Positions 5,742 to 10,114 of a DNA stretch of 64,000 bases are shown piece by piece; position 1 is the first letter of the stretch; each line of letters starts with the position of its first letter. The notes under the pieces are model-generated. The model made no database searches. It saw nothing but the letters and a program-made list of their open reading frames with translations, and had not been told where the DNA came from. Source of the stretch: Candidatus Multivorans sp. (GTDB taxonomy: Bacteria > Acidobacteriota > Thermoanaerobaculia > Multivoradales > Multivoraceae); the NCBI GenBank assembly GCA_965224025.1, contig OZ245033.1, forward strand, positions 736,001 through 800,000. The letters run 5' to 3'. The translations under genes and the position numbers were made by a program.

Positions 5742-5756
5742 CCGGCGCCTGCCTGT

Positions 5757-5830
5757 CGGGGCGTGGCGCAGTCTGGTAGCGCACCTGCCTTGGGCGCAGG
5801 GGGTCCTCAGTTCAAATCTGGGCGCCCCGA
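5757..5830 (+). tRNA. tRNA-Pro(TGG)
   Basis: Acceptor CGGGGCG/CGCCCCG, anticodon arm CCTGC-CTTGGGC-GCAGG, T loop TTCAAAT; CCA not encoded. Confidence 0.95.
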
Positions 5831-5873
5831 TATCGCTCGCATGCCCGGGCCTCGGCTACCCTGTCGCTTTCAC

Positions 5874-5950
5874 CTGCCTGTAGCTCAGATGGATAGAGCG
5901 GCGGCCTTCTAAGCCGCGGGTCGGGGGTTCGAGTCCCTCCAGGCAGGCCA
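5874..5950 (+). tRNA. tRNA-Arg(TCT)
   Basis: Acceptor CTGCCTG/CAGGCAG, anticodon arm GCGGC-CTTCTAA-GCCGC, TTCGAG, 3' CCA. Confidence 0.96.
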
Positions 5951-5979
5951 GTCGCCTTGGAGTTCAGTCGGATAAGTCT

Positions 5980-6056
5980 GGTGGGTGTAGCTCAACCGGT
6001 AGAGCACTTGATTGTGGTTCAAGTGGTTGGGGGTTCAAGTCCCCTCACCCACCCCA
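5980..6056 (+). tRNA. tRNA-His(GTG)
   Basis: G-1 plus GTGGGTG/CACCCAC acceptor, anticodon arm CTTGA-TTGTGGT-TCAAG, 3' CCA. Confidence 0.96.
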
Positions 6057-6083
6057 TGTCCGTTTTCGTTTCCTCCCATTCAC

Positions 6084-6160
6084 GCGCCCGTAGCTCAGCT
6101 GGATAGAGCGACGGCCTCCGGAGCCGTAGGTCAGGGGTTCGAATCCCTTCGGGCGCGCCA
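6084..6160 (+). tRNA. tRNA-Arg(CCG)
   Basis: Acceptor GCGCCCG/CGGGCGC, anticodon arm ACGGC-CTCCGGA-GCCGT, TTCGAAT, 3' CCA. Confidence 0.96.
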
Positions 6161-6338: not shown

Positions 6339-7424
6339 ATGACGACCACCGAAACGACACCGTCCAGACCCCTCCGAATCCTCCTGGTTCGCCTTTCGGC
6401 AATCGGCGACTGCCTGCACGCGGCGCCGGTGGCGGCGGCGCTTCGCCGCGCGCATCCGGGGGCGTTCATCGGCTGGGCGATCCAGGAGCCTGCCGCGACC
6501 CTCTTGCGGGGCTGCCCCGGCGTCGACTGCTTTCATGTCTACCCTCGCCGGGGCCGCGGCATTGCGGCGCGGCTTGAGGCGTTCCGCCGCTTTCGCCGCG
6601 AACTCAGAAGCTGCCGCTACGACGCTGCAATCGATGTCCAGGGTCTCACGAAGAGTGGGCTGGTGGCTTGGTGGAGCGGCGCCCGGCAGCGAGTGGGCTT
6701 TCGCGGTGGACCGGCGATGGGCAGCCGGGAGCTGAATGCCCTGTTTCTGAACCGACGCTTCGCCGTTGACCCTGCCGTGACCCACGTCGTCGACCGCAAC
6801 CTGGCGCTGGTCCGCGCCTCGGGATTGGCCGGCAAGAAAGCCCCGATCGCGGAGTGGCGGCTGCCCGACTACGCAAAGCCCGAGGCCCTCGTCTTTCTCG
6901 AGCGCCACGGCCTGGGCGCCGGTGGCTATGCGGTGGTATCGCCCGGGACGATCTGGCGCACGAAGCACTGGCCGCCGGGCCATTTTGCGGCCGCGGTGCG
7001 GCGCTTGGCGCGGGAGCGCGGCTTGCCGGTGGTCGTCGTCTGGGCGGGCGAGGAGGAACGTCGGGTGGCGGAGCAGATCGTGGCCGGCGCCGGGGATGGC
7101 TGGCCGATCCTGCTCGCACGGCCGACCGATCTGCGCGAGCTGGCGACCCTGTTGCGGCACGCGGCCCTGTTCCTGGGTTGCGATTCCGGCCCAGCCCATC
7201 TGGCCGCTGCACTCGACGTGCCGTGCGTATCCGTGTTCGGGCCGACGGATCCTGCCCGCAACGGCCCCTACGGGCCGCGGTCCATCGCCGTGCAGATCGA
7301 CCAGCGGCTGGAATGCCAACCATGCTGGCGGCGCACCTGCAGCCGCGGCGACTTCGCGTGTATGGAGCGGTTGGATGCCGACCAGGTCGTGGAGGCTTGC
7401 CTGAGAAAGCTCGACACGGCCTAG
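6339..7424 (+). CDS. Glycosyltransferase family 9 (LPS heptosyltransferase, WaaC/WaaF-like)
   Basis: ILLVRLSAIGD, YDAAIDVQGLTKS, KHWP and GCDSGPAHLAAALDVP..FGPT motifs. Confidence 0.92.
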   Translation: MTTTETTPSRPLRILLVRLSAIGDCLHAAPVAAALRRAHPGAFIGWAIQEPAATLLRGCPGVDCFHVYPRRGRGIAARLEAFRRFRRELRSCRYDAAIDVQGLTKSGLVAWWSGARQRVGFRGGPAMGSRELNALFLNRRFAVDPAVTHVVDRNLALVRASGLAGKKAPIAEWRLPDYAKPEALVFLERHGLGAGGYAVVSPGTIWRTKHWPPGHFAAAVRRLARERGLPVVVVWAGEEERRVAEQIVAGAGDGWPILLARPTDLRELATLLRHAALFLGCDSGPAHLAAALDVPCVSVFGPTDPARNGPYGPRSIAVQIDQRLECQPCWRRTCSRGDFACMERLDADQVVEACLRKLDTA

Positions 7425-7480
7425 CTCGCGCGCGCCGCTTCGCGGCCGCGCGTCTGATGCCGGCCGGAGGCCGGCGTACC
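7424..7480. repeat. REP-like repeat (family A), target of the IS110 insertion
   Basis: GCCGGCC-GGA-GGCCGGC hairpin followed by GTACC; its tail (CAGC) resumes at 9191 after the IS; an uninterrupted relative is at 31991-32016. Confidence 0.8.
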
Positions 7481-7689
7481 TGTACCTTTCTCGGGTGGAT
7501 TCTGGTGGGTCGTTGAGAGAGGTGGAATCGACCAGTAGCCGTCGCGGCTGCGGTAGCTGTGGGAAACCGGCTTGCCGGTTTTCCAAGGTCCGGCGGGAAA
7601 CGGTCTGCCGTTTTCCGCGGGACCGGCAGCTTCCGCAGCCGAGACCGCCGGTCGGTTGCGTCTCCGGCCTGCCGGAGTCACTGAAGGAA

Positions 7690-7846
7690 AGTCGGCAAGC
7701 AGCCAGGAGCGACCACCGGCGTACTGTGCTTCGAGCACCTGGCTGGGACCCGTGCCCTGGCTGCTTCGCCGCGTTGGACGCCCAGTGGAGAGTCAGTGCC
7801 TTAGAGCACCAGTACAGGTACGGGCAGGCAACGCGGCATGCCGACC
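7690..7846 (+). ncRNA. IS110 bridge RNA (target-binding and donor-binding loops); 5' boundary uncertain
   Basis: Closing stem GTCGGCA/TGCCGAC. Loop 1 carries CCGGCGTAC and GCTGGG, matching the target flanks. Loop 2 carries GTGGAGAGTC and GTACAGG, matching the donor junction. Confidence 0.88.
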
Positions 7847-7880
7847 AGGCAACACTACCGCAAGGGAGAAGGAGGACGAG

Positions 7881-9134
7881 ATGACCAGGACGTGGTTCGT
7901 CGGCGTGGACTGGGGGTCCGAGACCCACCACGTGTGTGTGCTGGATCGGGACGGCAAGGTGAGGGGGGAGCGGGCGTTCGACCACAGCGGCAAGGGACTT
8001 GCCGCCATGGCCGACTGGCTCCTTGGACATACCCGACCGACGTCTCCGGACGAGATCGGCGTCGCCATCGAGGTGCCGCACGGACCGGTGGTCGAGACTC
8101 TCCTGGAGCGGGGCTTCGCCGTGCATTCGATCAACCCCAAGCAGCTCGACCGCTTCAGGGACCGCTTCTCCGTCGCCGGCGCCAAGGATGACCGCCGCGA
8201 TGCACGGGCGCTCGCCGCCGCGCTTCGCACCGACCCCGAGTGCCTGAACCGCGTGCAACCATCCGATGCAGCCATCGTGATGCTGCGCGAGGTGTCCCGC
8301 GGCCGCAAGCAGTTGGTCGGCCAGAAGAACCGCCTGGAGAACCAAGTCCGCGACCAGATCTGGCGCTACTACCCGCAGTTTCTCGCCGTGGTCAAGAACG
8401 AGGTGTCGGCGCCCTTCGCGCTGGCCTTGTGGCGACTGGCGCCGACCCCCGGCAAGGCTCGACGGCTGCGCGAAGCCACGCTCGCCAAACTGCTCAAGGA
8501 ACACCGCATCCGGCGCCTGACCTCCGCCCAACTGCGCGATCAACTGCGGGCCGAGCCGATCGCCGTTTCCCCGGACACCGTTAAGGCCGCCGTCGAACAC
8601 ATAGGACTCCTCCGGCCGGTGCTCGACACCGTCTGCCGCCAACTCGCCGACGCCGACAAGCGGCTGGAGCGGATGACCCGCGCACTCGAGGCCCCGGCCC
8701 AACGGGAAAACGACGACGACTCCCCTAAGCCGAGCGACGCCGCCATCCTCAGGTCGCTGCCCGGACTCGGCAAGGTCGGCCTCGCCACCCTGCTCTCCGA
8801 GGCCGATCAAAGCCTGGGCCGCAGAGACCACGAGGCACTGCGTTGCCTCTGCGGAGTGGCGCCGGTGACCGTCAAGTCCGGCAAGAAGCTCATCGTCATG
8901 CGACGACTCGCCGCCAACGAACACCTCAGCGACGCCGTCTATCACTGGGGACGAGTCGCCATCCAGCACGACCCGATCAGCCGCGCCAAGTACGACGCCA
9001 TGAAAGCCCAGGGAAAGACGCACGGACGCGCCATCAGACAACTCGTCGACCGACTCCTCGGCGTCGCCTGCGCCATGCTCCGAGACCGAACTCTCTTCGA
9101 CCCCAACAAGCGATGCCATGCCCAGGTCGCATGA
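7881..9134 (+). CDS. IS110 family transposase/recombinase
   Basis: RuvC-like DEDD (VGVDWG, IEVP, KDDRRDA) and Tnp20 domain (LRSLPGLG, GVAPVTVKSGK with the catalytic Ser); strong GGAGGA RBS before ATG 7881. Confidence 0.96.
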   Translation: MTRTWFVGVDWGSETHHVCVLDRDGKVRGERAFDHSGKGLAAMADWLLGHTRPTSPDEIGVAIEVPHGPVVETLLERGFAVHSINPKQLDRFRDRFSVAGAKDDRRDARALAAALRTDPECLNRVQPSDAAIVMLREVSRGRKQLVGQKNRLENQVRDQIWRYYPQFLAVVKNEVSAPFALALWRLAPTPGKARRLREATLAKLLKEHRIRRLTSAQLRDQLRAEPIAVSPDTVKAAVEHIGLLRPVLDTVCRQLADADKRLERMTRALEAPAQRENDDDSPKPSDAAILRSLPGLGKVGLATLLSEADQSLGRRDHEALRCLCGVAPVTVKSGKKLIVMRRLAANEHLSDAVYHWGRVAIQHDPISRAKYDAMKAQGKTHGRAIRQLVDRLLGVACAMLRDRTLFDPNKRCHAQVA

Positions 9135-9292
9135 CCTCCCTGACCCGCAGCAGCCTCCCCAAAACACACTTGCTAAAGGGTGGAGAGTCCCAGCGGTAGG
9201 GCGTCGGCGTGGCGGGAACCTCTACTACAGACATCATGGCTCGCTGCGGTGGATACGGCTCGGGCGGGCCACTGCTTGGCATACTTCGATCG

Positions 9293-9547
9293 ATGCACGA
9301 CGAACCCGCCGCCGATCCGCCGCTAATCCGCCCGCCGGCGTTCGACCGGATCACTCTCCGGCTGCTTGTGGCGGCGCTGGTCGCCGGTGCGCTGACGGTG
9401 CCGATCGTCATGTCTTGGCGTGACTTCAGTTGGCTCATGGCGCTCTCCAGTGCCGCCGGTATCGCTCTCCTGATCTTCTTCAGCGGCCGTGCCGCGCGGG
9501 TCCTGAACTTCGAGTGGCGCCGGCCGCCCTTCGAGCGGGAGGACTAG
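9293..9547 (+). CDS. Small hypothetical membrane protein (2 TM)
   Basis: Two hydrophobic segments; stop 3 bp before the NUDIX start; start uncertain. Confidence 0.55.
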   Translation: MHDEPAADPPLIRPPAFDRITLRLLVAALVAGALTVPIVMSWRDFSWLMALSSAAGIALLIFFSGRAARVLNFEWRRPPFERED

Positions 9548-9550
9548 GAG

Positions 9551-10114
9551 TTGAAGAAGGTCCGTCCCTGGCGCGTCGAGGCCAAGCGTTCGGCCTTCGA
9601 CCACCCGCTGCTCAGGGTCGAGACCCAGGAACTCCGGGCCGGCGCCGACCGCCGAGAAGCGCTGGTTCTGCGGTCGGCCGACTGGGTCAACGTGATCCCC
9701 CTGATCGAACCCGGATCGACGGCCGACGGACCGACCGTCGTGTTCATCCGTCAGTGGCGGTTCGGGCGCGCCGCGGAGTCGCTGGAGATTCCGGGCGGCA
9801 TCGTCGAAGCGGGTGAGGACGCGGAGGTTGCCGCGGGACGGGAACTGCACGAAGAGACCGGCTACCGGGCCGGCAGGATCGAGCGCCTCGGCGTGGTCGA
9901 GCCCAACCCCGCCATCCTCGACAACGTGTGTTCGCTGTGGCTGGCTCGCGACCTGACCCTTACCGGCGATCCGATCGGCGACGGCAGCGAGGAGCTCGAG
10001 GTCGTCCACGTGCCCTTGCGCGAGGTTACCGAGCGGATCGCGAGCGGTGAGATCCGCCACTCGCTCGTCGTCACCGCCTTCTACTTCTTCGCCCGGCGCT
10101 ACGGTTTCTCTTGA
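9551..10114 (+). CDS. NUDIX hydrolase (ADP-ribose pyrophosphatase-like)
   Basis: Nudix box EIPGGIVEAGEDAEVAAGRELHEETGY. Confidence 0.92.
   Translation: MKKVRPWRVEAKRSAFDHPLLRVETQELRAGADRREALVLRSADWVNVIPLIEPGSTADGPTVVFIRQWRFGRAAESLEIPGGIVEAGEDAEVAAGRELHEETGYRAGRIERLGVVEPNPAILDNVCSLWLARDLTLTGDPIGDGSEELEVVHVPLREVTERIASGEIRHSLVVTAFYFFARRYGFS

Follow-up and report, generated by a model that had tools for sequence, protein, structure and literature searches.

Insertion sequences (ISs) of the IS110 group move by a mechanism class first described in 2024. Bridge RNAs (bRNAs) have been predicted for 85.7% of the IS110-group elements in ISfinder, and the same report describes short sub-terminal inverted repeats (STIRs) that flank the donor (PMC11208160). 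For IS621 of Escherichia coli, the catalytic residues are given as D11, E60, D102, D105 and S241, and the handshake guides are described as pairing at positions 6–7 with non-cognate DNA after strand exchange, not with cognate DNA before it (PMC11208158); here and below, published systems are compared in the respects covered by the cited passages. Here we analyse a 64,000-nucleotide stretch of Candidatus Multivorans sp. (Acidobacteriota; contig OZ245033.1, positions 736,001–800,000), referred to as the window, which carries an element of this group at 7481–9190. Its sequence and that of its relatives make it highly probable that the element belongs to an IS110-group IS which is present in about 14 copies and moves by bRNA-guided serine/DEDD recombination. 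A first-pass annotation of the window had proposed an IS621-type bRNA architecture at this locus, and the defining features of such an architecture that a sequence can test proved to be present, the junction promoter as a putative one; on re-reading 7300–9400, its strings and coordinates were all correct. Where we call the element intact, this is a statement about its sequence.

Ends, predicted bridge RNA and recombinase of the element

The element, its core, and its target and donor sequences lie as follows.

7481–9190, + strand: IS110-group insertion sequence, 1710 bp, with the same exact ends in 12 full-length copies (97–100% identity)
7471–7478, + strand: left target (LT) CCGGCGTA, identical to bRNA 7716–7723
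7479–7480, + strand: core CC of the left junction, the same dinucleotide as at 9189–9190
7481–7485, + strand: right donor (RD) TGTAC, complementary together with the core to bRNA 7812–7818, conserved across all orthologs
9180–9190, + strand: left donor (LD) GTGGAGAGT followed by the core CC; together they are the right end of the element (from the sequence and the full-length copies)
9191–9194, + strand: right target (RT) CAGC; one of the 12 full copies has CGGT and the other 11 have CAG(C/T)

The dinucleotide CC is the sole identity between target and donor at the crossover and is kept in every listed ortholog junction; with CC at both junctions, the boundary of the element is ambiguous, a shift of 1 or 2 nt being equally valid. 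The non-coding ends are unequal in length, with 400 nt on the left and 56 nt on the right (9135–9190), and the left end holds the predicted RNA.

7690–7845, + strand: predicted bRNA, 156 nt, made up of an outer stem, a target-binding loop and a donor-binding loop (from the fold and a 22-ortholog alignment)
7697–7707 / 7756–7766, + strand: stem of loop 1, with an inner hairpin at 7726–7738
7769–7777 / 7829–7837, + strand: stem of loop 2, as read from the sequence
7716–7724, + strand: left target guide (LTG) CCGGCGTAC, 9 nt, T/C polymorphic at 7722 among copies
7742–7747, + strand: right target guide (RTG) GCTGGG, 6 nt, reverse complement of the core plus CAGC
7748–7749, + strand: target-loop handshake guide AC, which would pair with donor positions 6–7 (GT, 9187–9188) after strand exchange
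7785–7794, + strand: left donor guide (LDG) GTGGAGAGTC, 10 nt, identical to 9180–9189
7812–7818, + strand: right donor guide (RDG) GTACAGG, 7 nt, reverse complement of CC plus TGTAC
7819–7822, + strand: donor-loop handshake guide TACG, which would pair with target CGTA (7475–7478) after exchange

Folding with ViennaRNA placed the guides in the internal loops of two stem-loops within 7690–7845 (minimum free energy −79.4 kcal/mol, z = −3.85), and none of 200 shuffles of this segment folded as well. The first-pass annotation had described two guide-bearing stem-loops in the left end and had proposed that 7481–7880 be folded; the two-loop fold was retained in the whole left end (z = −7.06), and the fold and its shuffle controls bear the description out. 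The guides themselves are seldom reproduced by chance: among 20,000 shuffles of the 400-nt left end, an LT 9-mer and an RT 6-mer within 40 nt of each other arose four times, and the 10-mer and 7-mer of the donor guides never did. Rfam covariance models gave no match at E ≤ 1 on either strand of 7000–9700. The LTG has the same sense as the LT and would pair with the bottom strand, as described for IS621 (PMC11208160). Each right guide runs on into its handshake bases: the reverse complement of GCTGGGAC, the RTG with the target-loop handshake, equals 9187–9194, and that of GTACAGGTACG, the RDG with the donor-loop handshake, equals 7475–7485 over 11 nt. In the window copy the donor-loop handshake could thus extend to 4 nt (TACG/CGTA), and it would be shorter for the commoner CGCA targets.

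The recombinase gene lies downstream of the predicted RNA.

7869–7875, + strand: Shine–Dalgarno sequence AAGGAGG, 5 nt before the ATG
7881–9134, + strand: recombinase gene, 417 aa, DEDD/Ser (open reading frame (ORF) and domain matches)

Pfam matches comprise PF01548 (DEDD_Tnp_IS110, residues 7–165, 1.5e-32) and PF02371 (Transposase_20, residues 288–371, 1.1e-12), and the protein scores 174.3 bits with the NCBIfam model NF033542, 'IS110 family RNA-guided transposase', the cutoff of which is 140. When solved structures were searched with phmmer, the only relatives were IS621 (2e-11, 46.9 bits) and ISCro4 (9t56, 1.5e-9). In the alignment with the IS621 chain 8wt6_A, residues D10, E64, D104, D107 and S333 match D11, E60, D102, D105 and S241, after a 2-residue offset of the PDB chain numbering that we infer and have applied. 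By these sequence comparisons, the recombinase is an IS110-family DEDD/Ser enzyme distantly related to IS621 and ISCro4.

Guides and targets among genomic copies and relatives

The host genome (5.14 Mb in 3 contigs, 67.6% GC) contains 12 full-length copies of the element with 97–100% identity, two copies with a left-end deletion of about 80 nt and several fragments, and no other IS110 paralog family was found in it. All 12 full-length copies are inserted at GCCGGCG(C/T)A-CC on the left and CAG(C/T) on the right (CGGT once), with no target duplication, and the element is without long terminal inverted repeats. Insertion of other copies at unrelated sites had been named beforehand as an observation that would speak against guided targeting; the copies share the same motif, and the CC core and target read in the window copy hold in all 12. 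The motif is the tail of a repetitive extragenic palindromic (REP)-like repeat, in which a GCCGGC hairpin is followed by GCACCCAGT. It occurs at 17 left junctions and at 43 empty sites in the genome, compared with about 1.3 occurrences expected from base composition, and the same hairpin and tail are present at all 43 empty and 17 occupied sites. In the window copy the hairpin is placed as follows.

7459–7475, + strand: REP-like hairpin GCCGGCC-GGA-GGCCGGC, directly 5′ of the left target and overlapping it

Among the empty REP-like copies, 38 of 43 have the C...T allele, and two tandem copies (C1:298626 and C1:298661) lie directly after the right end of one copy of the element (L010).

Residence in a palindromic repeat invites a different account, in which the protein or the REP hairpin alone chooses the target and the left-end stem-loops are a 5′ untranslated or regulatory region that carries REP-like sequence. 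The LT does overlap the GC-rich repeat, a captured REP fragment could mimic a guide, and for ISPpu10 a stem-loop 5′ of the target is reported to be itself a determinant of specificity (10.64898/2026.03.19.712850). Capture of a repeat, however, would leave the reverse-complement sense of the right guides unexplained, and the donor loop matches the element's own ends. The account also has to face orthologs whose targets are unrelated to REP sequences (GGGGTC-CC-TTTTC, GCGATC-CC-ATTTG and GTGGACG-CC-TCCCC): their guides are changed correspondingly, at the same loop positions. The permutation test of guides against flanks described below largely refutes target choice by protein or hairpin alone, and we regard such an account as extremely improbable.

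For the comparison among relatives, one genome per species was scanned and 80 loci were kept of 178 relatives. They come from Ca. Multivorans metagenome-assembled genomes (MAGs; 71–93% protein identity), other Thermoanaerobaculia (65%) and Vicinamibacterales (56–59%), with one Azospirillum and one gammaproteobacterial record as the exceptions from outside the Acidobacteriota; apart from these two records the relatives are all Acidobacteriota MAGs, in keeping with the distant lineage that the first-pass annotation had assigned to the element. A homologous RNA was found upstream of the gene at 77 of the 80 loci, and the three loci without a bRNA anchor (L075, L092 and L105) were excluded from all counts. 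Together with the window copy this gave 78 loci with 22 distinct guide pairs, of which 20 had both flanks; the guide families of L078 and L106, for which no right end was located, stayed outside the permutation test.

In the alignment of the 22 distinct bRNA versions, the scaffold and the RDG are invariant, and the two target-guide stretches and the base that follows the RDG account for most of the variation. The consensus structure has 34 pairs, with 98.4% of cells paired and double-sided compensatory changes at 11 pairs across the 22 orthologs; none of 500 shuffles reached the observed number of compensatory changes, and slid controls had 0–2 such pairs.

Junctions were located with the donor guides, the left junction through the right donor and the right junction through the left donor guide, and the target guides were then compared with the real flanks. 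Among the related loci there are at least eight different target guides combined with a conserved donor (GTGGrrAGT-CC-TGTAC). The target specificities comprise CCGGCGYA-CC-CAGY, which is that of the copies described above, CCGCGCA-CC-CGGT, GTGATAGC-CC-TTGTC, TTCGTC-CC-CTCCC and the three non-REP targets already named, and two more were verified in the left half only. Over the 20 families, the summed contiguous match between guide and flank was 151 on the left, compared with 66.4 ± 10.9 after permutation, and 117 on the right, compared with 63.8 ± 7.2; none of 10,000 permutations reached the observed value on either side. Covariation of guide and target among homologs, whose absence had been set out at the start as a ground for rejecting the bRNA reading, is thus found in the form of guides that covary with their own flanks.

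The handshake bases vary in step with the same junctions. In 21 of 23 guide families the donor-loop handshake and the left target agree at position 7, with A, C or G in that place; agreement at position 6 is limited to 11 of 23. In the target loop, donor position 7 is matched in 21/21 guide families and position 6 in 19/21. Full pairing of the handshake bases with cognate DNA before exchange would be available in 0/21 families for one loop and 1/21 for the other. The handshake matches reported in the first reading are exact in the sequence and behave in an IS621-like manner across the guide families; on the evidence of these alignments, the handshake bases follow the rule reported for IS621.

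The relatives provide good natural evidence, at the level of sequence comparison, that guides have been reprogrammed within this clade. A broader proposal, which we put forward tentatively and hold to be rather less likely than its alternatives, is that the Acidobacteriota clade forms a natural reprogramming series, in which one donor and one RNA scaffold would have been retargeted to at least eight sites of 13–15 nt, the T-to-C change at 7722 may track the two REP alleles of this genome, and an orphan bRNA could act in trans.

The orphan in question (L017; C1:4322373–4322573, minus strand) is a bRNA of about 200 nt that corresponds to element positions 158–358, has no recombinase gene and lies between unrelated sequences. 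It carries a C-type LTG and a changed RDG, GTGCAGG, and its outer stem is incomplete, the last bases being absent; the sequences that flank the orphan are found as loose ends at 7638 and 7835 in the contigs of run X1. Size also varies among the relatives. In five Vicinamibacterales loci (L062, L065, L068, L070 and L084), a right end with the correct RT lies about 3.55 kb past the ORF start, giving elements of about 3.8 kb, and the element at L082 measures about 2.5 kb; judged by their sequence, these longer elements may be cargo-carrying or tandem-expanded IS110 elements, as have been described elsewhere (10.64898/2026.08.14.744561).

Proposed transposition cycle and signs of recent activity

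By analogy with IS621, we propose that the element would be excised as a circle in which its right and left ends abut at the CC core. The circle junction would bring TTGCTA from the right end, as a −35 hexamer, to a spacing of 17 nt from the −10-like TACCTT of the left end, and transcription through the left end would yield the 156-nt bRNA and then the recombinase mRNA. The donor loop would bind the circle junction GTGGAGAGT-CC-TGTAC, and the target loop would bind CCGGCG(T/C)A-CC-CAG(C/T), the REP-like tail. A recombinase tetramer would then exchange strands at CC, after which the bases AC and TACG, 3′ of the right guides, would pair with the exchanged partner strand as a handshake; the outcome would be precise insertion with no target duplication. 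Within this scheme, we infer excision as a circle, transcription, activity of the promoter, catalysis and mobility today from the sequence and from described relatives.

The sequences that would form the junction promoter, and the features next to them, are as follows.

9170–9175, + strand: −35-like hexamer TTGCTA of a putative split promoter, with TTG at the same distance in all 26 distinct ortholog junctions
7483–7488, + strand: −10-like hexamer TACCTT of the putative split promoter, found in 19 of 26 distinct ortholog junctions
7485–7489, + strand: CCTTT, STIR partner of AAAGG at 9175–9179, a repeat of 5 bp read from the sequence
7533–7668, + strand: double-hairpin repeat inside the left end, downstream of the putative junction promoter and upstream of the bRNA

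Abutting the two ends gives TTGCTA-17-TACCTT, and across the 26 distinct junctions TTG lies exactly 17 nt from a TACnnT box, the sequence 5′ of TTG being unconserved. Variants of the −10-like hexamer are TACCCT (four junctions), TACCGT (one), TACATT (one) and TACGGG (one, with a doubtful boundary). In the integrated form the left flank has GC-rich REP sequence in place of the −35 hexamer, and a sigma-70 scan of the linear region that required at least 4/6 matches per hexamer found 0 sites. These observations are consistent with the published picture, in which the promoter is rebuilt when the circle forms (PMC11208160, PMC11187229).

Several observations count against the scheme set out above, beginning with its promoter. 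TACCTT matches TATAAT at only 3/6 positions and would fail the same sigma-70 criterion, so that of the junction promoter claimed in the first-pass annotation the positions of the two hexamers and their 17-nt spacing are exact and the second hexamer is a poor match. Because its TAC also belongs to the right donor, conservation of the second hexamer does not independently prove a promoter. A highly structured leader of about 210 nt, which includes the nested repeat, separates the putative promoter from the bRNA. As for the guides, most targets read CAGT and the RTG is complementary to CAGC, which leaves a G–T wobble or a mismatch at that base, and the LTG and the copy's own target carry the same allele in only 10 of 15 copies of this genome (Fisher p = 0.56). 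Among the relatives, the left flank of L050, the right flank of L104 and one right flank of L088 do not fit their guides, and two of four left flanks in the L030 family differ from the guide at one base. The guide families are also related by descent, so that the permutation count overstates their independence. The left boundary of L050 has probably been misassigned, and the guide–target signal, as read from these sequences, is robust because there are many different target sequences.

The leader varies among relatives. Vicinamibacterales orthologs have only 38–39 nt between the left end and the bRNA, and the nested repeat is mostly deleted in two copies (L013 and L014). Copies of the repeat (about 130 nt, about 86% identical) occur at four further loci (L018, L019, L020 and L021), which also have a further conserved upstream stretch in common; Rfam gave no match for the repeat loci L018, L019 and L021. 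At L020 the repeat adjoins ORFs of the IS21-like istA/istB type, as judged by a Walker-type motif.

The T/C polymorphism of the LTG at 7722 falls at the exact position at which the targets differ, and it is the one polymorphic base in guide loops that are otherwise identical among copies. The association between guide and target alleles reached p = 0.018 only when the copies were pooled with those of two sister genomes. T-type sites make up 5 of 17 occupied sites and 3 of 43 empty ones (p = 0.035, a single weak test). Tracking of REP alleles by the guide is, on these sequence counts, suggestive only; a bRNA that acted in trans would blur the allele-matching signal.

Signs of recent activity are the 97–100% identity of the copies and the intact ORFs, 10 of 14 of which have the full 417 aa, with 404–417 of 417 residues identical. 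The same copies could be read as fossils of a past burst, left by a genuine bRNA-bearing IS110 element that is now dormant or decaying. Four of the 14 ORFs are altered: in three (C1:535138, 599172 and 3854733) the C-terminus is changed from about residue 409, the frames extending to 464–466 aa across the right end into the flank, and one copy stops after 27 aa. There are truncated copies and, at C1:550050, a solo left junction in which a T-type target and the first 14 nt of the left end are followed by coding-like sequence with no relation to the element, a sign of a truncated copy. The contig sets of four public runs contained no joint or circle, and contigs cannot show rare forms; those of the runs break up across the multi-copy element, and none of the runs listed as RNA contains the stretch. 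Nor was there any orthologous filled/empty polymorphism among 12 same-genus genomes, in which the glycosyltransferase and downstream genes are adjacent, the IS is absent, and the REP sequence is absent from that place or, in one genome (G012), inverted. Against dormancy stand the 10 intact ORFs of 14, guide loops identical save for one base, the 43 empty targets that remain, and sister genomes that hold copies at different sites, from 4 to at least 18 per genome. We judge dormancy to be very unlikely and favour an element that has moved recently by bRNA-guided recombination.

The window copy is intergenic, with a family-9 glycosyltransferase gene before it and a small ORF and a NUDIX gene after it. 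In three of the same-genus genomes (G001, G008 and G010), the glycosyltransferase gene is on the strand opposite to the downstream genes, unlike in the window genome, which suggests a local inversion relative to the latter. Four clustered tRNA genes (Pro-TGG, Arg-TCT, His-GTG and Arg-CCG) occupy 5756–6160, upstream of the glycosyltransferase gene, and because of this cluster the first 260 query bases in the flank comparison among relatives are conserved across orders.

Relation to described systems

A full-text literature search, which did not cover supplements or subscription journals, found no paper that joins 'bridge RNA' with 'Acidobacteriota' and none that joins 'IS110' with 'CC core'; ISfinder or the IS110 database of Durrant et al. 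may already list this clade. Because the architecture is known and predicted for the great majority of its group, and because the NCBI family name already reads RNA-guided, the element is a further example of a known system. Its value is confirmatory and practical, not conceptual. With about 14 copies, 43 empty sites, 80 related loci and many target specificities, it offers an unusually complete natural data set, which reproduces from sequence the rules known from IS621 experiments for the guides, the core, the handshake and the junction promoter (the promoter being putative here). The recombinase is a candidate for tool development, being a distant ortholog whose core is CC and whose target is GC-rich: if the enzyme were active in a heterologous host, it would add a GC-rich specificity with a core other than CT, and perhaps a longer handshake, to bridge editing. 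The element is also a test case for the co-evolution of IS110 elements with host REP repeats.

The IS1111 group, described with its seekRNA, resembles the element in its DEDD transposase, in target choice guided by an RNA, in the REP or attC sites that some members use, and in a circular intermediate whose junction forms a promoter (circle and promoter being putative here; PMC11187229). In IS1111 elements, according to the same account, the RNA is encoded in a long right end and the STIRs measure 7–17 bp; membership of that group is ruled out by the 56-nt right end, the left-end RNA and the 5-bp repeat (AAAGG/CCTTT) of the element.

Two elements of Pseudomonas putida resemble it in their choice of site. 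ISPpu9 is an IS110-family element found in REP sequences, with additional stand-alone copies of its small-RNA gene (PMC12288879), to which the orphan bRNA would correspond; the RNA of ISPpu9 is encoded downstream of its transposase gene and that of the present element upstream, and the orphan has a changed RDG. All ISPpu10 insertions are reported to occupy a single conserved intergenic repeat, which is extended on its 5′ side by GC-rich sequence that forms a stem-loop beside the RNA-matched target (10.64898/2026.03.19.712850). Likewise, the hairpin at 7459–7475 precedes and overlaps the LT and recurs at the 43 empty sites, although in the present element its 3′ arm belongs to the left target.

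ISCro4 (IS622; 10.1101/2025.05.14.653916), the second solved relative (9t56), belongs to the same family and is described, in a report based on a screen of 72 orthologs, as using the same bRNA logic; its core is CT, and it is a near relative of IS621.

The closest counterpart in architecture is IS621 itself (PMC11208160, PMC11208158). Both have a RuvC-like DEDD domain and a Tnp domain with a catalytic Ser, a bRNA with two internal loops in the long left end, a 2-nt core common to target and donor, handshake guides 3′ of the right guides, a split promoter spanning the circle junction (putative here) and a short STIR that flanks the donor. The present recombinase has 417 aa, compared with 328 residues in the solved IS621 chain, and is distant in sequence; its core is CC, not CT; its target is GC-rich and lies in a REP-like hairpin; its donor-loop handshake could reach 4 nt (TACG) at a T-type target; and a structured leader of about 210 nt separates the left end from the bRNA in an element that is known here from sequence alone. 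As far as sequence can tell, these differences from IS621 are quantitative or taxonomic, and the element is a very clean fresh example of bRNA-guided recombination, not a novel type of system.

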